Both the position numbers and the translations under genes were made by a program. A model generated the notes under the pieces. That model saw only the letters and a list, made by a program, of their open reading frames with translations. It ran no database searches and was not told where the DNA came from. From a virus, in the IMG/VR virus record IMGVR_UViG_3300045988_096785, positions 41,968 through 105,967 of that record: 64,000 nt of DNA; one strand, written 5' to 3'. Position 1 is the stretch's first letter; every line of letters starts with the position of its first letter. Shown piece after piece: positions 16 through 42,317 of the stretch.

Positions 16-3000
16 ATGAGATCCTTGGTAAATGAATACCGAAGGAGTTTGATGGACTATAGGAATATGAATAACTTCTTGTCTAAGATGCTTGATAAAA
101 GATTCTTAGCTGAGGAAAACAGGGGATTTTCAAAAGCTCTGTCTTCTCTATGGTCTACTCCTTATAAGGGGGATGACAAGGTTCCTGATTTTGCAGAGCC
201 TAATAAAGTTGGTGAATATGATACTGATGAGGTAGTAGATCAAGCTGTGTCAGAAGGTAAGATTTCGGAAGACGAAGCTTGGACTATCAAGGCCTTTATG
301 CATGCTCTTGATAAAGTAAGAGAAGATAGGATGAAGGAAGCAGAAGATGATATAAAAGAGTCACCGCTTACGGAGTCTGTATCAGATGAAGATTATGAGG
401 TTGCTATGGATAATCCTATTATGGTTCCGGCCGTAAGGCAGTCTATAATTGATAAACTATATACAGGTAATGCCGATCTTCTTACTGTGAGAGAAAAAGA
501 TGTGTATGATAAATACAAACAAGATTTTGATGATTATGTATCGTCTTTAGGTGACAGTCCCGTTAATCTCATAAAATCATTATCTGAAAAGGCTGATAGG
601 CTTACAAGTCCGAGATCTGTGTATGAGGATAATAAAGCTATTATTGATATGGCTAAATCCAATTTAGAACCAGATCAAAGGAAGGAACTTGATGATGCTA
701 TTTCTTCGTATGTGGATATAATGAACAGACGGGACAAAGGGGAGAAAGTTGATGAAGATAAGCTTGCTGATTCGGTATTTACCATAGAAGATCTTGGCCA
801 GGTTGGAAACATCACGGATCTCCTTCCTTATGTTGAACAAAACAGGATTATTGACAAAGGTCGTATCTCTGAATCTACGTTGAGTAATTTTGGGGAAGAT
901 GATGCTAATATAGATTCTCTTGTAAATGAGCTAGATGAATCCGATAATACGCCAGGAGCCAATATAGATAGCGCCCAGAATCCAGAGACGTTGATGGTTA
1001 GAAGAATATCCAACGATGGCAACGAAAGGTATGAAATTGCAGGTCTTAGAGCCGATAAATTTATATCTTCAATAAAATCATTGGTTCCTATTCAAATAAG
1101 TTCTGAAACGAACGCTAATGGAACTAAAAGGTATTTCCTTAACATAGGTGGAGAAACGGCTACCGTGATAGAACTTCCTTATCATGCGAGATGGTCTATA
1201 GACAAAGAATCGGCTCGTGTTCTTAACCGTTACACAGATGTGTCTATTCAGGACGTGGGTAATTCATATTCTTTGGTTTATAAGCGTCTTGATTCAGACG
1301 AATTGGTTCCGTACAGAACAGGTGTTGGATTCGGAGAGAATGAAGTAGATAAAATAGATCAGGAAGCATTATCTTCTTTGAAGAAAGGAGATAAGGTTAA
1401 TCTTGAGATAGATGCAAATGATACCTATAATCAGTCTCTTTTTGCCGAATACAATGATGCTGTTCAGTCCGGTGATAAAAAAAGAATAGAATCTGCTGAA
1501 AATAAGCTGGTATCCAATATGGTTATCAAGGTCATGAGTGGAAACAGATTCGTTTCTGTTGTTAAAGCTGACACGGGTGGCATAGATGGTATAAGTAAAA
1601 TAAGAAGAACGGCTTTTAACAAGTGGAAGAAGGATGCCGGCCGGTCGGCCACCATCAACGTCGGCACGCATGTTGTTGCCCAGACCCTTCCCGGAAGACC
1701 GGTGTTTAACATGAGAGTGAACGGTCAAGGATATGGTCAGGTAGAAAATCTCCCTATTACCGAAAAAGGTGCTGAAAAAGTATCTGATGTCGGATATGTA
1801 TTAAATGGCAAAGTCGTGCTTAAGAACGGATCTAAATACACAGGCTTCCCATTTGCTTATTCTATATTAAATGACAAGGGGAATAATTACAAAAATGTAA
1901 GAGTTCCGGTAGTTGTCATCAAAGGTAAAAACGGTCTTAATTATCTTTTCCCAGTTAGCCTACGTTCTGTAGAATCAGAGGAAGGGCAGAAATGGATGTC
2001 TTTTATAGATATGCTGCTTGAATCTGGTGATTCTGAATTGCTACAGATGGGTCAAGATGATATACAAGATCTTAATGCGTATCTAACCAAGTTAGGTCTT
2101 GATCCAGCTTCGTATCAAGTATCGTATTTGAATCCTATTTCAGGTCTTAGAAAAGCTCGTGAGGCTATAGAAAAATTATCTACAGTTCCTGATGTTGTTA
2201 AGTGGGTAGAAGATGAAAGTAGGAGTGTGAAAGACATTGTGACGTCTGAAGTAGAATCTGGAATAGATTTCGAAGGTGAGATGTTTGTTGCTCCTAAGAT
2301 CAGGATTCAGTTTGGTAAATCATCTTCCAGACCTAAATCACTTATAGAAGATGATCTCCCTTTCTCCGATGAGGGTAAGACCGTTACTTCCAAGGAAGAT
2401 GTGGATATTTACGAAGAGGAAATGCCAGAGGAAGACCCTGTCCGGGGGACTCGGCCGGCGCCACCAGCTCAGCCGGCTCCTGCGGCACAAGCTACGCAGT
2501 CCTTACCTGGCAAGAAGCGCACCTCCAGAAAAAACTTCTCTATTATATTGAGTGAAATAGAAGCTCATACAGAAAAAGAAGGATTGCCGCCTTATGCTAA
2601 TATTTTTGATTTTATAGCAAGGAAGATTGTAGGAGGTGATTTGAGATTTCTTCGTGAGAGAGGTAATCCTAAAAGTCTTAAGGAGGAAATGGGATTAGAA
2701 CCTAAAGGAACAGTAGGTGATAAAATATCCACTCCTTCTAAAAAGGGAGGTAAGACCTTAGATGAATACGTTTCTTGGCTTCGTTCTCAAACGGATCAGG
2801 TAGTAGCGGATTATGTTGGGCCAAGATCTGACGAACAAATTATATCAGAGTTGAAAAACTTTTTGAAATATATTAATTTTGTTCCAAGCAAGGCTTTGAA
2901 TTATTCTCTTAGAGTCAATGGCATGGATGCCCTAAAAGAATATGGCACAAAAGAGGAAGTAAAAAAAATGGAATCTGACATCAATAGTTTGGTTTCTGAA

Positions 3001-3834
3001 GTTTTGCCTACGGTAGATAATCAAACTGTAGAAGATGTTTCTACTGCAATAGAATCAAATAACTTGCCTGCCATATGGGAGCCTATGGAAAGCCTTGATA
3101 TGACAAACGAGGAAAAAATAGAGTTTTTGAATAACGTAGCAGATTTCCTTAGTGGCATTCCAGAGTATGATGCTGTTGTGGAGTCTATAGAGTCAGAATC
3201 AGATAATATTTTAAATGATGGAAAAGAAGGAAGTGCAGAAGGCGGTGCAGTACGCACTGAGGAAGATGGCGATAAAAAGGGAGATGGAGAAGGCAAAGGA
3301 CAATCCAGAACAAATGTCGAAGTTGAAGGAAATGTCGAATTACCTGGATCTACAAAAGGAGAAATAGAAAAAGACGAACCTCGTATATCCGAAGAACCGC
3401 TTACTCACATATCAAGGGTAACAACCCCTTATTTTCTGTACGGCGGTGATGAAGCATATACATCTGTTCCGGCTAAGGTAGAACAGATACCTGAGAAGAT
3501 AATGGGTCGTAATGGCATTAAATTTGGTATGAGTGTAGTCGAGTTAACCAAATTAGGGTACAAAAAAGCTGGTGGAAAATGGATATATAAATTCTATATG
3601 AACTCAGGTGTGTATGATTTGTATAATATCAGTACCGGTGAAGCGTTTAGGGCAAAACCGGATCTTGGAGTTAAGATAAGTTCCAGTGTATTCATCCGCT
3701 CTTTATCTCAATCTGGTAGAAAAATACAAAATATGATGAGTAACATGAGTCAGGAAGAGATAGATAGGAATAAGAATCTCGTAGAAGGTTCTGATAATTC
3801 GGATTCGATAAATGAGTTAAATAAAGAGTGTTGA
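16..3834 (+). CDS. Large hypothetical virion-associated/structural protein (1272 aa). The frame is open to window start, so the true 5' end may lie upstream
   Basis: Longest ORF in the region with no in-frame stop between position 1 and the first ATG. Acidic low-complexity stretches and a Pro/Ala linker (PAPPAQPAPAAQ). Co-oriented with the other large plus-strand genes. Confidence 0.6.
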   Translation: MRSLVNEYRRSLMDYRNMNNFLSKMLDKRFLAEENRGFSKALSSLWSTPYKGDDKVPDFAEPNKVGEYDTDEVVDQAVSEGKISEDEAWTIKAFMHALDKVREDRMKEAEDDIKESPLTESVSDEDYEVAMDNPIMVPAVRQSIIDKLYTGNADLLTVREKDVYDKYKQDFDDYVSSLGDSPVNLIKSLSEKADRLTSPRSVYEDNKAIIDMAKSNLEPDQRKELDDAISSYVDIMNRRDKGEKVDEDKLADSVFTIEDLGQVGNITDLLPYVEQNRIIDKGRISESTLSNFGEDDANIDSLVNELDESDNTPGANIDSAQNPETLMVRRISNDGNERYEIAGLRADKFISSIKSLVPIQISSETNANGTKRYFLNIGGETATVIELPYHARWSIDKESARVLNRYTDVSIQDVGNSYSLVYKRLDSDELVPYRTGVGFGENEVDKIDQEALSSLKKGDKVNLEIDANDTYNQSLFAEYNDAVQSGDKKRIESAENKLVSNMVIKVMSGNRFVSVVKADTGGIDGISKIRRTAFNKWKKDAGRSATINVGTHVVAQTLPGRPVFNMRVNGQGYGQVENLPITEKGAEKVSDVGYVLNGKVVLKNGSKYTGFPFAYSILNDKGNNYKNVRVPVVVIKGKNGLNYLFPVSLRSVESEEGQKWMSFIDMLLESGDSELLQMGQDDIQDLNAYLTKLGLDPASYQVSYLNPISGLRKAREAIEKLSTVPDVVKWVEDESRSVKDIVTSEVESGIDFEGEMFVAPKIRIQFGKSSSRPKSLIEDDLPFSDEGKTVTSKEDVDIYEEEMPEEDPVRGTRPAPPAQPAPAAQATQSLPGKKRTSRKNFSIILSEIEAHTEKEGLPPYANIFDFIARKIVGGDLRFLRERGNPKSLKEEMGLEPKGTVGDKISTPSKKGGKTLDEYVSWLRSQTDQVVADYVGPRSDEQIISELKNFLKYINFVPSKALNYSLRVNGMDALKEYGTKEEVKKMESDINSLVSEVLPTVDNQTVEDVSTAIESNNLPAIWEPMESLDMTNEEKIEFLNNVADFLSGIPEYDAVVESIESESDNILNDGKEGSAEGGAVRTEEDGDKKGDGEGKGQSRTNVEVEGNVELPGSTKGEIEKDEPRISEEPLTHISRVTTPYFLYGGDEAYTSVPAKVEQIPEKIMGRNGIKFGMSVVELTKLGYKKAGGKWIYKFYMNSGVYDLYNISTGEAFRAKPDLGVKISSSVFIRSLSQSGRKIQNMMSNMSQEEIDRNKNLVEGSDNSDSINELNKEC

Positions 3835-4415
3835 GTATGAGAAGGAGATACGAAGATGTTTCAGGTCTTGTTCAGTATCAGTTGAAGACCAATCAGCAGG
3901 GGAATATAGAGGTTTATGTTGATGACAGGTTTGTTGGAAACGTAAGTGAAGGAGTCTGTAATTGGAAGGATATTGAATACAAGAGTAAGGTTACTATATC
4001 TTTGAAAGGAGTCGAGGATAAGGCTAAAACTTCAAGTAAAAGAGTCGGTCCTTATTGTCACATTAATAGCATATTTGGAGGAAATGAATCTTATCATGCA
4101 GGTCCGGATAGTAATATAAAAAAGAGTCCGGTTACTACCTTTCTAATGTATTGCTATAAAAATGGGAATATTACGACTATCACCACTTATACTAAAAATT
4201 TATCTGGAACTCTTCAGATAGGTAAAACACAATTGACTATCAATTACAAACAAAATAAAAGTCAGTCTTTTTCCGGTGGTTCTGGAGATTATGTAACATC
4301 CGTATCTGATTTCCCTTTTGTTACTGGTCCAGGAAATGATAGTGTTGAGTTTGAAGGAGAGGGAAGATTGATAGTTGAGACAGAGGCTTCGCATTATGAA
4401 ATAGAAGTTTCTTGA
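3828..4415 (+). CDS. Hypothetical beta-rich protein (about 193 aa). The first ATG is at 3837; the track start at 3828 is GTG
   Basis: ORF directly follows and slightly overlaps the 1272-aa gene. Ser/Thr/Gly/Asn-rich composition typical of structural beta proteins. Confidence 0.5.
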   Translation: MLSMRRRYEDVSGLVQYQLKTNQQGNIEVYVDDRFVGNVSEGVCNWKDIEYKSKVTISLKGVEDKAKTSSKRVGPYCHINSIFGGNESYHAGPDSNIKKSPVTTFLMYCYKNGNITTITTYTKNLSGTLQIGKTQLTINYKQNKSQSFSGGSGDYVTSVSDFPFVTGPGNDSVEFEGEGRLIVETEASHYEIEVS

Positions 4416-4600
4416 CATACTCCCATCGCTAAAGCAAACGGGATTCTTGGATACAAACGCAAGAAACCCCGATATTACTATCGTTGGAATTACTCTTACT
4501 CTCCAATTCGGAAATGCCCTTCCGAAGTATATTACGGGCTGCAAGAATATCACGGTCGTTGATGGCGCCGCACGCCGGGCATACCCACGTGCGGTCGCGT
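4380..4600 (-). ncRNA. Putative omegaRNA (reRNA) scaffold overlapping the tnpB 3' end, with the guide extending past the right end (about 4400-4428)
   Basis: Established architecture of TnpB loci (scaffold from the tnpB 3' end plus the right end, guide from the flanking DNA). Not directly verifiable from sequence without a covariance model. Confidence 0.3.
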
Positions 4601-5675
4601 AACGACAGACCTTTATTAATGCAGCCACATTCACAAGTTTTGGAAGAAGGATACCATTTGTCAATCTTGTGTATCGTTACTCCATACTTTGAAGCAACAT
4701 ACGTAAGTTTGTCAATAAAAGAAGAATGACTGAGATCGGAAACTTTCTTTCCCCACAAACGTTTCATTCCTTCAATGTTTAGATCTTCAATAAAAATATA
4801 ATCATACTGTTTGCATAACTGGTGTGCTAATCCCCATTGAAAATCCGATCGAAGATCGTTTATTTTACGATACGTTTGTTGTAGTTCAAACAGTTTTCTT
4901 CTTCTATTATTGGATCCTTTCTTTGTATTAGAAAACCGTTTGTTTAGTTTTCTAATCTTGTTTTGATATTGTTTAAAGAATAATGGAGAATCGATTTTGC
5001 TACCATCGCTTTTAGTTAGATAAGTTTTCAGGCCAAAATCTAATCCGATAGATGCACCATCATGTGTCTTTCTGTAAGAGTTTGAATGATTATGATCTGT
5101 AACTATAATCAAACTAAAACGGGAACAGGTTTCTCTAACTATTCTAATTTGTTTAACATTACCTTCGTAGACTCTACTGTATGAAAATCTAAATCGTTTC
5201 TTTCCTTTGTTAATTGTTAGACAATTCCCATTCAGGGTAAACCCTCCTTGTTTGAAAACAAAAGAGTTAAAACAATCAGCTCTTTTGAACTTAGGAGGTC
5301 GTTTAGCCAACTTCTTAAAGAAACGATTATAAGATTCATCAAGACGTTCAAGTATTTCTTGTGTTGTTTGAGAATGAAGAAGATTTCTTTTAATTCTTTT
5401 GGTAAAATGTTTCTTCATTTTACCAATTGATATATATTTCCTAAACAGTTTGTAGTATCTACGTTGTAGAGCTAACGCATGATTCCATACAAAACAACAT
5501 TCACGAAGCATTTTGTCAAGATACTTCGTTTTCTTGGAATGGTATATGTTGTATTTGTATGAAATCATTTTTATCTGTAATTTTGATTTAAAATTAATCA
5601 AACCAATTCATCCACCTTCTAAAGTATGGTGGTTTTGTTGGTTAAATTATCATAATTTCTATTTTTATAGTATCT
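4416..5675 (-). mobile_element. IS200/IS605-family (IS1341-like, TnpB-only) insertion between two plus-strand genes
   Basis: A canonical tnpB ORF oriented antisense to flanking genes fills the whole 1.26 kb intergenic gap. A CCACC-N11-GGTGG hairpin at 5612-5640 sits on the putative left-end side. No tnpA (Y1 transposase) is seen. Confidence 0.6.
4429..5601 (-). CDS. tnpB: TnpB (OrfB) RNA-guided RuvC-like endonuclease, 390 aa
   Basis: RuvC-I motif IGLDFGLKTY. RuvC-II motif IFIEDLNIEGM. Zinc finger CECGC...CPACG. RuvC-III motif NDRDILAARNI. Confidence 0.9.
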   Translation of the reverse strand: MINFKSKLQIKMISYKYNIYHSKKTKYLDKMLRECCFVWNHALALQRRYYKLFRKYISIGKMKKHFTKRIKRNLLHSQTTQEILERLDESYNRFFKKLAKRPPKFKRADCFNSFVFKQGGFTLNGNCLTINKGKKRFRFSYSRVYEGNVKQIRIVRETCSRFSLIIVTDHNHSNSYRKTHDGASIGLDFGLKTYLTKSDGSKIDSPLFFKQYQNKIRKLNKRFSNTKKGSNNRRRKLFELQQTYRKINDLRSDFQWGLAHQLCKQYDYIFIEDLNIEGMKRLWGKKVSDLSHSSFIDKLTYVASKYGVTIHKIDKWYPSSKTCECGCINKGLSLRDRTWVCPACGAINDRDILAARNILRKGISELESKSNSNDSNIGVSCVCIQESRLL

Positions 5676-7955
5676 TTGTCTAAAATATTTATCACTATGG
5701 GTGTCAAATGTCAGATAGAAAAAAAGGAAAATGAAATAAAACGGGTTAAGGCTCCTAACGGTGAGCCTTCCGTTCTTTACGAAAGTGCTTTAAAAGTATT
5801 AGGAAACAGCGAGCGGGCCCTTCAGGTATGGGCTAAGGCTTACACTCCTGGTTTTTTGTCGTATTACGGTCATTGGAACAACCCGGCTCCAGGGGAGATG
5901 TTTAATACCGATTCCAATGGTGAACCTCTCTTAGAAGACGTGCTGTCGTATATGAAGCGTCAGACTTATTTTGCTGATCCTTTAACGGCTCAGGACATTA
6001 AGGATGTAAGGGATTTCCTTTTGTCTACTCATTATTTTTTCAATGCGTCTTCATTGTCTAATGCTATCCTCTTCGATTTTTATGTAGATGGCAGTTTGAT
6101 ACTGAATGAGCAGAAATTAAGGGGATCCGGTTTGTATGATGAAACAGAAATAAGTCGTATTTTATCCGATCCTTCTGTTTTAAACGAGGTTTCGACTTCC
6201 ATGAGAAAGTTAATAGATTCTTCTATTAACGAACATGATAGGGAAAAGGATAATTATTTTATGTCTGTTGACTATCAGTATGGTCCTATTGTTTACAAGG
6301 AGGGAGTGTTTAACCAATTTGGTAAAAAAGTACCATATAATCCTTCTGAGCTTTATTATGCTATGCGTAAAACAGTAGCCGGCATAAAAAACTTTTCTGA
6401 ATTTTCATCTGCTTTTGAATCGTTGAGAAATTCATATCCTGAACTGGTTGAGAAATTCGTTTCTGATAAAGAATTTGCCGAATCTATGTTTGATGAGTTC
6501 TCATCTACGAATAAGATTCCGGTAATAAACATAGAAGGGGATGATGTGGTAGAAGGCAAGAGAAGATCCTTGTCTAAGCTACAAGATCTGTCTTATTACA
6601 ATCCTGGCAAAATAGAGTTCCTAAGAGCTCGTATATCAGCTTATTTACATAGGGCTAATGCCGACACCGAATCCGATTTAAGAAGCATGATATGGGATAT
6701 AGAAGAGGCTTGTACGTGGTTTGGCATAGATATAATAGGGACATCGGAAACTTATGATGGCACAGAAGAATCTTTGAATAAGATAGATAATTTGATGCTG
6801 GATCTTGATATTTATGTGGCCAGGCATAATGATGTAAATTATGCTCCAACGCTGGCATCTTCTATGGATGATGTTCTTGGTGATAGCACAGATTATTATT
6901 TTGGATTATTGCCGGAATATATGGATAATTTGAATATCGTTTATTCTGAATCTGATATAGACCCAGTAGAAGCATTTGAGAAACATTCATTGCTTAAGGT
7001 AGGAGATAATCTATATCAAAGGATCAGCAAAGATGATCTTAACGAGATGTATCAAATATCAACAGTGTTAGCCAAGCACAACCTAACTCATTTTTCTACT
7101 AAAATATATCCTGAATCTTGTTTTAAGAACGGCGTTTTGGATAAAGAGAAAGTACGGAACGTAGATGATAATACGCTCATGGATTCTATAAAAAAATACG
7201 TCAGATCGTTTATGGATTCTCAGAACACGGAGGACATGATAATGACCAGGCTGGCGTTTGGGCATCCGGCGGTACTTGACGTTCCTTACGTGGATGTGGA
7301 TCGGGAGTATAGTCGATACATGAACAAAAAACAAGATAGCGAAAACCCATTATCCTTATTCGATTTATACCAATCTTACCTTGACAACAAACTCCATAAA
7401 ACAAAATTATATGATAATGCCTATAAGTATCTTGACTTCAAACCTGGTCCATCTTTGGGTCTTATTTCTGATGATCCTGATATTTTGAAATCAATAGAAT
7501 TATCTTTATCTGGAAAAGACAGGTTGATGTTGTTTGATTATAGCATGACCAGTACCGACCCTTCTTTATCAGAATTGTTTTATTTGGAGAAGTATGACTC
7601 TTCGTATGCCGGGAATGATTTTGAACACTATTTTTACACCAGGCACCCGTATCTGTTAAAAGAAAAATCGGGCCCTAATATCGTAGAGCAAGATGGTGTT
7701 ATAACAGCCGAAGGTATTTATGATAATTTTATAAGAGTAGGTAATAAGATATGGTCTAAAGTAAGCGAAAGTAGTTCCGGATCTATCTACCAAAATCTGA
7801 CAGGAACCGAATCGGAGGTGAAATACGATTCTACTCAGAAGGCTAAGGTAGTAGAAACCGATTACGCTCCATACCAAAACAGATCTGGCTTGACGCAAGA
7901 CATGACCGTAAGCAAGTCTGAATTGGATGATCTTAACAAATTAGAATGCAAATAA
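5676..7955 (+). CDS. Hypothetical large protein (759 aa), possibly structural
   Basis: Long ORF co-oriented with the structural block. No recognisable motifs. Confidence 0.6.
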   Translation: MSKIFITMGVKCQIEKKENEIKRVKAPNGEPSVLYESALKVLGNSERALQVWAKAYTPGFLSYYGHWNNPAPGEMFNTDSNGEPLLEDVLSYMKRQTYFADPLTAQDIKDVRDFLLSTHYFFNASSLSNAILFDFYVDGSLILNEQKLRGSGLYDETEISRILSDPSVLNEVSTSMRKLIDSSINEHDREKDNYFMSVDYQYGPIVYKEGVFNQFGKKVPYNPSELYYAMRKTVAGIKNFSEFSSAFESLRNSYPELVEKFVSDKEFAESMFDEFSSTNKIPVINIEGDDVVEGKRRSLSKLQDLSYYNPGKIEFLRARISAYLHRANADTESDLRSMIWDIEEACTWFGIDIIGTSETYDGTEESLNKIDNLMLDLDIYVARHNDVNYAPTLASSMDDVLGDSTDYYFGLLPEYMDNLNIVYSESDIDPVEAFEKHSLLKVGDNLYQRISKDDLNEMYQISTVLAKHNLTHFSTKIYPESCFKNGVLDKEKVRNVDDNTLMDSIKKYVRSFMDSQNTEDMIMTRLAFGHPAVLDVPYVDVDREYSRYMNKKQDSENPLSLFDLYQSYLDNKLHKTKLYDNAYKYLDFKPGPSLGLISDDPDILKSIELSLSGKDRLMLFDYSMTSTDPSLSELFYLEKYDSSYAGNDFEHYFYTRHPYLLKEKSGPNIVEQDGVITAEGIYDNFIRVGNKIWSKVSESSSGSIYQNLTGTESEVKYDSTQKAKVVETDYAPYQNRSGLTQDMTVSKSELDDLNKLECK

Positions 7956-8000
7956 TTTTTGTATATATATAATATAGTTTTTTCATAGTTATAATTTGGG

Positions 8001-8702: not shown

Positions 8703-9710
8703 ATGGGTGGTGATAAAATCGTCCTTTTAGATGGAGCCGGGGCTAACGGTGGTGGTGCAGCCGCTAACGGTCTTCTTTCAATGATTCCCGGCATGTTTGC
8801 TAATTTAATAGGTGGTAATAAAATGGATCCGAATCTGGTGGCGGCTTTGATGAATGGTCGTAACAACCAGGACGGTTTCGGTGGGGCTAACGGTTGGTGG
8901 CTCTGGATAATTGTTTTGTTCTGGCTGTGGGGTGGACGCGGCTTCGGTAACGGTTTTGGAAATGGTGGTGATTGTTGCGCCAATGGTTTACCCGCTCAGT
9001 TGAATAACGATTACGGTCGTGAGCTTCTGATGCAGGCAATTCAAGGTAATCGTAGCGCTATAGATCAGATCGCTTCTGCTTTGAACTGTTCTACTACTCA
9101 ACTTCAGAACGCTATCTGCAACGTACAGGGTGCTATTGATAAAGTAGCTGGTCAGGTAGGTATGACTTCTCAGGCTGTTATCAACGCAGTTCAACAACAA
9201 GGTTGTGAAATCGGAAATCAAATCAGCTCTTGCTGCTGCAATCTGAGTTCGTTGATCAATCAAAGCACTTGCCAGACTCAGGGAATGATTACTCAGCAAG
9301 GTTTTGATAACCAGCTTCGCACGTTGGAACAAACCAATATCTTGCAGAACGGTCTCAACCAAGGTCTGGCTAACAATCGTGAGCAAGCTACAAGCCAATT
9401 TAATATCTTGTCTGCGAAACTTGACGCTCAAACCGTTATGATCAACGACAAATTCTGTCAGTTGGAAATGAGGGAGATGCAGAACACTATTGCTCAACTT
9501 CGTGAAGAAAAAGCGGCTTTGACAGCTTCGGCATTATCTCAGCAACAAACCCAGAATATCGTTGGTCAATTACGCCCGACGGCCGTCCCAGCCTACCCCT
9601 CTTGTTCTCCTTACCAGGCTTATTCTTGGGGACAGGTATTCGGAGGAGGTTACTGCAATAACGGATGTGGATGTAACAACGGATGTTGCAATAACAACGC
9701 TGCTGTCTGA
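8703..9710 (+). CDS. Gly/Trp/Cys-rich protein with a central coiled-coil (335 aa), hypothetical
   Basis: N-terminal Gly-rich region. Trp-rich hydrophobic segment WWLWIIVLFWLWGG. Gln-rich coiled-coil. C-terminal CCNNGCGCNNGCC. Confidence 0.6.
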   Translation: MGGDKIVLLDGAGANGGGAAANGLLSMIPGMFANLIGGNKMDPNLVAALMNGRNNQDGFGGANGWWLWIIVLFWLWGGRGFGNGFGNGGDCCANGLPAQLNNDYGRELLMQAIQGNRSAIDQIASALNCSTTQLQNAICNVQGAIDKVAGQVGMTSQAVINAVQQQGCEIGNQISSCCCNLSSLINQSTCQTQGMITQQGFDNQLRTLEQTNILQNGLNQGLANNREQATSQFNILSAKLDAQTVMINDKFCQLEMREMQNTIAQLREEKAALTASALSQQQTQNIVGQLRPTAVPAYPSCSPYQAYSWGQVFGGGYCNNGCGCNNGCCNNNAAV

Positions 9711-10699: not shown

Positions 10700-11077
10700 A
10701 TGATAGTATATGATTTAAATTCAGGACACAGAGAATATCCTGGATATGATGAGATAGAAGACAGGCGAGGTGGAGGCAGAGGCAGAAGCCGTCGTTCTGA
10801 TGGGACGTACATGGAGTACGGACATGGGTTCCTTCCTCCTTATGATCATTACGGTATGCATGAGAAGATGAAGGAAATGGAAGAACGCGAAAACGAGCTG
10901 GAAGAAAGGGAAAGAAGGCTCGAAGAGCGCGAACGTCGTCATGAAATGGAGGACCGGGAATACCGGAGGATGGGTTACGAATCCTACCCGACCGATTACT
11001 ATGGAGACGACAGATACTACGGTGACGGACCTCAGATGCGTAGAGGTCGCGGACGTGGCAGAGGTCGTTCTTATTGA
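10700..11077 (+). CDS. Highly charged RG-repeat / Glu-Arg-rich protein (125 aa), possibly nucleic-acid binding
   Basis: RGGGRGRSRR and RGRGRGRGRS repeats at both ends and an EERERRLEERERRHE core. Confidence 0.5.
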   Translation: MIVYDLNSGHREYPGYDEIEDRRGGGRGRSRRSDGTYMEYGHGFLPPYDHYGMHEKMKEMEERENELEERERRLEERERRHEMEDREYRRMGYESYPTDYYGDDRYYGDGPQMRRGRGRGRGRSY

Positions 11078-22469: not shown

Positions 22470-22711
22470 ATTATTTTACTTTCACGATCTTAATAGAATC
22501 TCCGATATTGTATTCCCCTTGGTGTCCAACGAATTTTATGATTCTATTATGTTTAAATATTGAAATTATTTCGTCTTCAGCATAATACATCACACGTCCA
22601 CCCTGTAAAGGACGTAGATCATATATAACCCATCCGTCATTAACCTGATGATTATTTGAACATGATTATAATACTAATGTCATCAATAAAATAAAATACT
22701 TCATATTATTT

Positions 22712-41648: not shown

Positions 41649-42317
41649 TTACCGCTCTTTTGATTCGTCCGACATAGGCATGTCAAACTTTTTCCTGATA
41701 AACGATTCTGTTTCTTCATTGAATGGATAGGCCTCCTTGATAAAATTCATAGCCACCTCCATGTCGCCATCTGCTATATCCTTATACCTCTCAAAGATGC
41801 CAACCATGTCGTTGTTATATGAACGCTCTTGTTTTATATTGTACACGTATTTCAATACCCTATCTTTGATTTCATTGGCTTTTTTCACGGTGTCATTGAA
41901 GGTATTTATACCTGTCAATTCAGGGTTTTTATTTTTCTCATCTATCTTATCAAACTCTTCCTCGCTATATCCTGTTTCTCCTTTAACAGCCGGGCAAACA
42001 CCCTCCTTCATGATCCAAAACTGTTCATACGATCCTGCCAGATATCTCGATTCTGTTTTAAATGCATTATACTTGACAAGCAAATTAGCCACCTCAGTTG
42101 CACCTTCTATGGTTCTAAAACCGATGCCGATATCTTTTAATACAAATAATGGAACTCCTGTTTTGGGGTACGAGATTTCTTTTTTGTTCTTTATATTCCA
42201 GTTTTTAGCTTCAATTGGAATACCTTTATTAGCAAGCTCTTTGTCTATATACAGACTTATGTCTTCGTCTGTCAATGCCACAATCTCATCTCTGCTTAAA
42301 TCAAAAACTGTTTTCAT
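41649..42317 (-). CDS. Hypothetical protein (222 aa)
   Basis: ORF. Confidence 0.5.
   Translation of the reverse strand: MKTVFDLSRDEIVALTDEDISLYIDKELANKGIPIEAKNWNIKNKKEISYPKTGVPLFVLKDIGIGFRTIEGATEVANLLVKYNAFKTESRYLAGSYEQFWIMKEGVCPAVKGETGYSEEEFDKIDEKNKNPELTGINTFNDTVKKANEIKDRVLKYVYNIKQERSYNNDMVGIFERYKDIADGDMEVAMNFIKEAYPFNEETESFIRKKFDMPMSDESKER

Follow-up and report, generated by a model that had tools for sequence, protein, structure and literature searches.

What is a gene for an RNA-guided nuclease doing in the structural module of a phage? TnpB is the ancestor of Cas12 and is encoded by one of the most abundant genes of prokaryotes. In the viral DNA analysed here (positions 41,968 to 105,967 of IMG/VR virus record IMGVR_UViG_3300045988_096785; this stretch of 64,000 nucleotides is referred to below as the window) a tnpB gene on the minus strand occupies the gap between the plus-strand genes at 3828-4415 and 5676/5697-7955. 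An earlier note on this DNA had read it as an antisense insertion of an insertion sequence (IS) of the IS200/IS605 family, either recently acquired and possibly still mobile, or domesticated by the phage. Here, a complete non-autonomous IS200/IS605 element of the IS608 type is delimited at window positions 4412-5651 on the minus strand (1,240 bp). The element is probably a selfish member of the IS608 lineage that has kept tnpB and its guide RNA (ωRNA) and that would spread both by the transposase TnpA supplied in trans and by TnpB-driven homing, its function being most likely selfish.

The extent of the element is given by genomes that lack it. Megablast of window 2500-8000 finds phage csAssE-Sib from the human gut (OR575929.1, 151 kb; 94% identity over a query cover of 76%), which identifies the carrier as a crAss-like phage of the epsilon group with some 94% identity to that genome. 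This relative presents a clean empty site, at which only 42 nt lie between the orthologs of the genes on either side; in pairwise alignment its homology to the window ends at 4411 and restarts at 5650 or 5652, and apart from this 2-nt ambiguity no target-site duplication distinguishes the empty from the occupied allele. At least 50 IMG/VR copies align over exactly 1-1240 of the element with unrelated flanks beyond, and the other copies all start GAT[T/A]ATTTAACC right after TTAT and terminate …GGGAGTATGTCAA. These uniform starts and ends resolve the ambiguity and place the element at 4412-5651. The comparison with related phages that had been proposed in the earlier note therefore yielded both the ends and the target motif, and the antisense insertion that it had described is upheld, with boundaries inside the 4380-5675 that it had given.

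The insertion point falls in the stop codon and 3' hairpin of gene 3828-4415, within the 3' arm of the hairpin, which in the empty site reads ATTATGAAA-TAGAAG-TTTCATAAT and is followed by a T-run. On the plus strand the gene ends …GAA GTT TCA TAA in the empty allele and …GAA GTT TCT TGA in the occupied one, the last bases of the element supplying a new stop codon (TGA, 4413-4415), so that the end of the upstream protein is kept (…EVS in both). Subterminal hairpins are present at both ends and on the same (minus) strand, with no terminal inverted repeats, as is characteristic of IS200/IS605 elements. Searches by tblastn and phmmer through the whole 64-kb window, the element included, found no Y1 HUH transposase (TnpA), whose absence the first reading had stated for the gap, and since tnpB is its only gene the element is classed as a non-autonomous, IS1341-type derivative.

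In IS608 the left cleavage site TTAC (CL) goes with the left guide AAAG (GL) and the right cleavage site TCAA (CR) with the right guide GAAT (GR), the guides lying just 5' of the subterminal hairpins (PMC5934647). The left end (LE) of the window element, 5569-5651 (minus strand) as judged from its fold, contains a hairpin CCACC-N11-GGTGG at 5612-5632 enclosed by an outer stem AACCAA/TTGGTT, with a putative left guide AAAA at 5633-5636, 5' of the hairpin. The phage flank before it carries 5'-TTAT-3' (5652-5655, minus strand), which is at once the left cleavage site and the candidate transposon-adjacent motif (TAM). For the element type found in the window (type 1), TTAT ends 26 of the 29 distinct left flanks among the loci fetched, the three others being register shifts or divergent copies, and position -5 is enriched in T (19/29). 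The right end (RE) consists of AAGAAT, a hairpin at 4421-4443 (minus strand) with compensatory changes in six of its eight pairs, and AGTATGTCAA, and it closes with the right cleavage site TCAA (4412-4415, minus strand); the combination GAAT…TCAA recurs in 75 of the 80 right junctions that are distinct. A covariance model of the RE hairpin also matches the LE weakly, at 5611-5635. A terminal GTCAA that is tandemly duplicated relative to same-site copies was seen at the right end of one locus (L076, contig 066313; L-numbers denote the fetched loci).

A sister subfamily (type 2; examples are L011, L029, L047, L056, L065 and L068, with L003, L226 and L238) encodes a TnpB about 90% identical to that of type 1 and has an identical right end, together with a different left end that consists of GATCTTTAACAAAG followed by CCCCTGC…GCAGGGG and contains an AAAG guide. 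TTAC stands ahead of it in 9/9 distinct flanks. This type-2 arrangement is the canonical one of IS608. AAAA accompanies TTAT in 24 of 25 in-register type-1 copies, and AAAG accompanies TTAC in 7 of 11 type-2 copies. A change of G to A in the guide together with a change of C to T in the target is what the base-pairing model would predict, although the four type-2 exceptions blur the picture. csAssE-Sib has a copy of its own (L002, 58986-60125; 78% amino acid identity) between its ring-protein and tail-protein genes, with a left region like that of type 2 and the same right end as the window element.

The protein bears out the description of a textbook TnpB with RuvC I, II and III motifs and a zinc finger. 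The mechanically called open reading frame (ORF) covers 4429-5601 on the minus strand (390 aa counted from the first TTG, at 5601), and the real start is probably the conserved in-frame ATG at 5568 (MISYKYN…; coding sequence 4429-5568, 379 aa), because nucleotide conservation with two relatives begins there and 379 aa is also the length annotated in csAssE-Sib. OrfB_IS605 (PF01385; 8e-18) and the Cas12f1-like TNB zinc-finger domain (PF07282; 6.5e-20) exceed their curated Pfam cut-offs, the N-terminal HTH_OrfB_IS605 gives a weak match, and phmmer against the PDB aligns residues 21-363 with ISDra2 TnpB (8h1j, 8bf8/8exa; about 1e-26). The acidic residues D177, E261 and D340 (379-aa numbering) align with the catalytic triad of ISDra2 TnpB, as do the zinc-finger cysteines (CxxC…CxxC in general form, C312-x-C314-x-C316...C330-xx-C333 here), and the ORF is intact; judged by its catalytic residues the protein would be nuclease-competent. 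Among 61 unique copies, codon positions 1 and 2 are far less variable than position 3. In a minority of sibling copies tnpB is pseudogenised, by an internal stop (L009, L032, L043, L063), loss of the ATG (L041, L054) or a change of frame or length (L016, L057), and the right-end RNA region stays conserved in these copies.

That region is the second functional part of the element. In the 61 copies the third codon position has a variability of 0.5-0.75 bits over the 5' half of tnpB but of 0.18 bits in the last 30 codons, where it equals that of positions 1 and 2, so that the constraint there is no longer codon-shaped; the 3' 229 nt also fold more stably than shuffled sequences (z = -4.1). For a comparative test, loci were collected by two invariant anchors (AGGGCATT … GAGTATGTCAA), giving at least 119 viral loci and 36 representatives below 93% identity, 27 of which were aligned (44-95% identical to the window over the region). 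RNAalifold returned 25 pairs in six helices, with compensatory double changes in 21 of the 25. Paired cells amounted to 89.6% (69.7% when shuffled) and double-change cells to 120 (37 when shuffled), with none of 500 shuffles reaching any of the observed measures, and sliding the partners by one to three columns lowered the covariation score from 0.50 to at most 0.17. As judged from this covariation, the right end together with the 3' end of tnpB forms a structured RNA of the OMEGA type (obligate mobile element-guided activity).

Covariation, fold and covariance model place the ωRNA scaffold at 4412-4532 on the minus strand, almost wholly within the 3' end of tnpB. Remnants devoid of tnpB share sequence from about ACTTCGG onwards, so that the scaffold should begin near 4530 and measure about 120 nt. 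It contains the hairpin CUUCGGAA-GGGCAU-UUCCGAAG, a long-range stem and the terminal hairpin UCCCGUUUGC-UUUA-GCGAUGGGA (4421-4443), which is preceded by GAAU (the right DNA guide, 4444-4447) and followed by GUAUGUCAA. In the window the covariance model built from the alignment matches 4412-4562 with 156.7 bits, a score high by construction, with a runner-up of 10.6 bits, and it generalises to elements on which it was not trained, namely those of phiHP33 (59.8 bits, E = 4e-14) and MT835745.

In the ISDra2 and ISGst systems the ωRNA runs 16-20 nt past the right end (PMC8612924; PMC10055086). By analogy, the ωRNA of the window element would extend into the flank from 4411 to about 4392, and the predicted guide segment, its length taken as 16-20 nt, is GAAACTTCTATTTCATAATG (4392-4411, minus strand), directly 3' of the right end and therefore phage DNA from the 3' end of gene 3828-4415. 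The origin of the guide in phage DNA beside the right end had been anticipated correctly, and its position (about 4400-4428) had been set some 20 nt off, 4412-4428 being the right end itself. Directly 3' of TTAT, the guide 20-mer is perfect in 59 of 60 empty alleles and has a single mismatch, at position 20, in the other; no second target with two or fewer mismatches over 14-20 nt occurs in the window.

The distribution of the element among related phages is that of a mobile and recently active one, the first of the two alternatives in the earlier note. IMG/VR holds 279 relatives of the TnpB protein, the best 80 of which are 89-99% identical and all lie on viral contigs of 17-160 kb. The exact 24-nt empty-site sequence is present in 59 IMG/VR contigs, whereas the right junction of the occupied site was found in two contigs and the left junction in three, four distinct contigs in all; many of the contigs that are empty at 4411/5652 bear the element elsewhere. 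Type-1 elements occupy at least 26 sites in the siblings, and among 68 unique full-length copies at 26 sites those at different sites are up to 99.8% identical, which makes transposition very recent. This number of sites and this identity are indirect evidence of actual transposition, which would pass through a circular single-stranded intermediate. With 59 empty contigs, hairpins at both ends and a covarying right-end ωRNA, the locus does not resemble the long-resident gene, without empty-site variants or end structures, that the earlier note had named as the contrary case.

At five or more positions where siblings have an insertion, the window itself has none (about 3917, 22485, 28795, 36692 and 42141). 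At 42141 it has TTGT where the occupied sibling has TTAT, and at 22485 TCAC instead of TTAC; both could be TAM-escape variants. In a subset of siblings identity drops to 61-77% over 5950-7750 (most of the downstream 759-aa gene) and over 2312-2900 (inside a 1,272-aa structural gene), with 94-99% in the neighbouring bins, which indicates divergent allelic modules swapped by recombination. No second copy, solo end or second ωRNA was detected in the window by blastn, tblastn or the covariance model with its filters off.

A non-autonomous element requires a transposase, and a source exists within the same phage population, since L226 and L238 carry TnpA together with TnpB. The flanks of L226 are 94-97% identical to window 34.3-42.5 kb, and its 1,650-bp TnpA+TnpB element follows TTAC at a point corresponding to 36692/36693, where the empty sequence reads …ctttgtttac/atgacag…; in L238 the TnpA is paired with a TnpB 89% identical to that of the window. 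A TnpA adjoins a related TnpB on seven IMG/VR viral contigs. Related copies with TnpA are L003, L176, L226, L228, L229, L238, L248 and L253, and MT839900 combines a TnpB 73% identical with a divergent TnpA and a left end of the form TTAC/GAT…AAAG/CCCCT. Reduced derivatives accompany the complete copies. L196 (contig 115250) and L166 (contig 101995) are miniatures of about 210-250 nt, like palindrome-associated transposable elements (PATE), in which the left end is fused to the ωRNA/right end and tnpB is gone, and L161 and L214 are truncated solo ωRNA/right ends. Such miniatures and solo right ends could supply extra guides to TnpB made elsewhere.

Taken together with what is known of TnpB, this arrangement suggests how the element may persist; expression, RNA processing, cleavage and homing in vivo, which we infer, would proceed as follows. 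TnpA supplied in trans would have catalysed a single-strand ‘peel and paste’ insertion 3' of TTAT, at the point where, in an epsilon crAss-like phage, a structural-module gene has its stop codon and terminal hairpin. Read from the minus strand, the element would then yield TnpB together with an ωRNA some 120 nt long, whose 3' extension copies the adjoining phage DNA. The TnpB-ωRNA complex would recognise TTAT-GAAACTTCTATTTCAT, which is present only in phage genomes without the insertion. The carrier would be protected because in the occupied allele the guide sequence follows TCAA and not TTAT, and single-base changes in the TAM abolish cleavage (Meers et al.; PMC10055086). TnpB would cut the ‘donor joints’ left by excision and, in mixed infection, the empty alleles of sibling phages. 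Recombinational repair from an occupied genome would then insert a copy of the element, which amounts to a gene drive by non-restorative homing; otherwise the cut rival would be lost. Retention and homing driven by TnpB have a precedent (PMC10055086), and in plasmids a TnpB gene drive with non-restorative homing has been demonstrated (PMC11870625); a 2026 review names co-infecting phages solely as a theoretical setting for such homing (PMC13565253).

Several observations weigh against this reading. The main reason for caution is that the IS608 TnpB of Helicobacter pylori was inactive in the Escherichia coli assay of Meers et al. (PMC10055086), so that activity of an IS608-like TnpB is not to be assumed. 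With TnpBs that are about 90% identical across the TTAT and TTAC subfamilies, the TAM preference of TnpB may not match both motifs. Rfam, searched over window 3500-6500 at a permissive threshold, contains no matching ωRNA family and gave only chance matches (CRISPR-DR64, E = 8; a snoRNA, E = 5). The closest relatives of the window copy are same-site siblings (99.3% and 98.2% identical), and because copies at other sites are at most 95.4% identical to it this particular insertion is not brand new. It occurs on at least two flank haplotypes, each of which also has empty representatives, which could reflect ordinary recombination or precise excision and not nuclease-driven homing; a comparison for co-conversion, which asked whether similarity to the window is confined to the vicinity of the insertion, found mosaic flanks in occupied and empty genomes alike. 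A scan of bacterial genome representatives, which detects only close relatives sharing exact peptide words, returned no close copy, the best TnpB being 56% identical and belonging to a Candidatus Cryptobacteroides metagenome-assembled genome. Part of the TnpB family is decaying, as the internal stops and lost start codons in siblings attest.

The alternative to which some of these points lend weight is that of an inert passenger: a real IS608-like insertion whose TnpB and ωRNA are non-functional or were never active in this host, the observed pattern being left by past TnpA-mediated insertion, precise excision and rampant recombination among the phages. The inactivity of IS608 TnpB in a heterologous assay, the pseudogenised sibling copies and the highly mosaic flanks, across which recombination alone can shift an insertion between haplotypes, are all compatible with it, as is a site occupancy of about 6% of contigs, unlike that of a strong drive at equilibrium. 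We nevertheless consider it unlikely. The ORF of the window is intact with all its catalytic residues, constraint on codon positions 1 and 2 is strong when set against position 3, and the RNA structure is kept by compensatory changes among relatives 40-95% identical, a combination of constraints that argues for ongoing selection on the function of both protein and RNA.

Domestication, the second fate envisaged at the outset, is a good deal less probable still. The gene might have become a weapon or regulator of the phage, for example one that cleaves DNA of the host or of a competitor at a fixed target, or a nuclease-dead repressor of the TldR type. TnpB-only genes do recur in this phage genus, and cutting the empty allele of a co-infecting sibling would be a form of interference competition that could benefit the carrier. 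The gene is not fixed, however, its site being empty in most siblings; the element is spread over at least 26 sites, each with a different flank-derived guide; the guide of the window copy lacks a second target in the window; and the element has retained its two transposon ends and obeys the TAM rule, as is typical of mobile elements and not of domesticated genes. Membership of the TldR or other nuclease-dead TnpB groups was considered and rejected, given the intact catalytic triad, the intact ends and the polymorphic location. That the insertion is an artefact, a bacterial IS mis-joined into a phage contig, is very improbable: the window and most of its relatives are metagenome assemblies, in which IS are a classic source of chimeric joins, yet both junctions recur in an independent contig (111815), the RE junction also in 109727 and the LE junction also in 113064 and 117450, every base of the junctions agrees with the TTAT/TCAA rule, frame and stop of the upstream gene are maintained, the GenBank phage csAssE-Sib has a 78%-identical copy elsewhere, and the bacterial genome representatives scanned are without a close copy.

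The selfish element that we favour may have a further property, to which a set of deletions beside the right end draws attention. Several copies have a left junction in common with another copy and a different right flank. In L004 (contig 3300045988_113064) an element 99.3% identical to that of the window has the same left junction and a right end joined to window 4115, with 296 bp of the upstream gene deleted, the deleted segment ending …CTTTTTTAT (TTAT); this junction is present in one IMG/VR contig only. In L012 (117450) 255 bp beside the right end are deleted, in a segment ending …TTTTTAT; L034 and L060 lack 129 bp present in L014, ending …CTTTAC; and L020 lacks 12 bp present in L018, ending …GATAT. 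Three of these four deletions thus end exactly after TTAT or TTAC, for which the chance is about 0.017 each, a rough estimate from a GC content of about 35% given without a formal test. The pattern suggests either that a transposase-linked event joined the right end to a target site downstream or that a second insertion took part in recombination; an element at the internal TTAT, as the two-insertion route would require for L004, was not found in IMG/VR, which is a weak negative. A literature search linking IS608 or TnpA with ‘adjacent deletion’ found no paper using the phrase. Under the first route, TnpA would join the right end to a downstream target without cleavage at the left end, producing a TAM-anchored deletion. 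A right end rejoined 3' of a TAM-like motif, which is TTAT, TTAT, TTAC and ATAT in the four cases, acquires a new predicted guide, and this re-aimed guide would target intact siblings, those that already bear the insertion included. We tentatively raise the possibility that, when crAss-like phages co-infect, the elements act as a natural RNA-guided gene drive and that such deletions can re-aim it. If true, this would be a previously undescribed route for reprogramming ωRNA guides, one that drives deletions through a phage population.

Among characterized systems, IS608 itself (ISHp608 of H. pylori, also in phage phiHP33) is close in design. It has the same terminal hairpin at the right end, the same final bases …GGGAGTATGTCAA, GAAT and TCAA, subterminal hairpins on one strand, insertion 3' of a tetranucleotide without duplication and target recognition through a guide of 4 nt placed 5' of the LE hairpin; the IS608-type element of phiHP33 has the same end hairpin and the same GGGGAGTATGTCAA. 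The window element differs in that its TnpB is only about 37% identical, tnpA is missing, the left end has another sequence with AAAA/TTAT in place of AAAG/TTAC, and the carrier is a crAss-like phage, presumably of a Bacteroidota host, and not a Helicobacter. With the IS1341 group it shares a solitary tnpB between functional-looking ends and the need for TnpA in trans. It is distinguished from that group by an autonomous partner in the same phage population (L226, L238, L003) and by the fact that the TnpB-only form has diversified into a subfamily whose left end and target motif are peculiar to it. Miniatures composed of LE and RE without tnpB, like those of the sibling phages, have been described for ISGst elements (PMC10055086).

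The OMEGA systems ISDra2 and ISGst2 (Karvelis 2021; Meers 2023) correspond to the window element in domain order, catalytic residues, an ωRNA over the 3' end of tnpB up to the right end, a guide derived, in the window by prediction, from the flank and a TAM common to TnpA and TnpB, and the TAM of ISGst2, TTTAT, resembles the (T)TTAT seen here (PMC10055086). The ωRNA of the window is, however, unrelated to theirs in primary sequence. The free-standing homing endonucleases of T-even phages offer a second parallel, in that they cut a co-resident empty allele, as is here proposed for TnpB. Recognition by the T4-type enzymes is based on protein and not on RNA. In the plasmid TnpB gene drive (Mears et al., 2025) a nuclease encoded by one allele cuts the allele without it and biases inheritance, which is again what we propose, although that drive was shown by experiment in plasmids whereas the phage case is built on population-genomic evidence.

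A bare TnpB-only IS in a phage is ordinary. TnpB is already annotated in these phages: Babkin et al. reported two TnpB genes in csAssE-Sib, the second being unrelated (18% identity), and such genes in only some Epsilonunovirus genomes (PMC11054128). TnpB relatives are encoded in 414 phage records of the collection searched, so that rarity of IS elements in phages is a weak premise, the earlier note having invoked it for the structural regions of lytic phages. What is added here is the exact anatomy, TTAT with its matching left guide, the covarying ωRNA, the match between guide and empty alleles, the TnpA donors within the population, the very recent mobility and, as a lead and not as a result, the TAM-anchored deletions.

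The upstream neighbour of the element (3828-4415, plus strand) encodes a hypothetical protein of 195 aa, orthologous to WOZ57302.1 of csAssE-Sib. The downstream gene (5676-7955, plus strand) has its likely start at ATG 5697, in keeping with the csAssE-Sib annotation (MGVKCQ...). Pfam gave no match for any of the three flanking plus-strand proteins. Further along the plus strand lie two ORFs of unusual composition: 8703-9710 encodes a Gly/Asn/Cys/Gln-rich protein of 335 aa with a C-terminal CNNGCGCNNGCCNNN, whose csAssE-Sib ortholog is annotated as a spike protein/glycoprotein, and 10700-11077 encodes 125 aa in which Arg, Glu and Gly abound and RGRGRGR stretches occur.

Selfish homing by TnpB has been shown for chromosomes and plasmids and proposed for phages in theory only. 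With its sibling genomes, which number in the hundreds, this locus forms a natural data set that makes RNA-guided drive from phage to phage testable, since the ingredients are present: haplotypes that occur in both occupied and empty form, a guide matching the empty allele, TnpA donors, miniatures and very recent transposition. It also offers a compact TnpB of 379 aa, for which TTAT is the predicted TAM, and an ωRNA about 120 nt long. For the genomics of crAss-like phages, the element accounts for part of the presence/absence variation and for some of the local deletions in the structural module.

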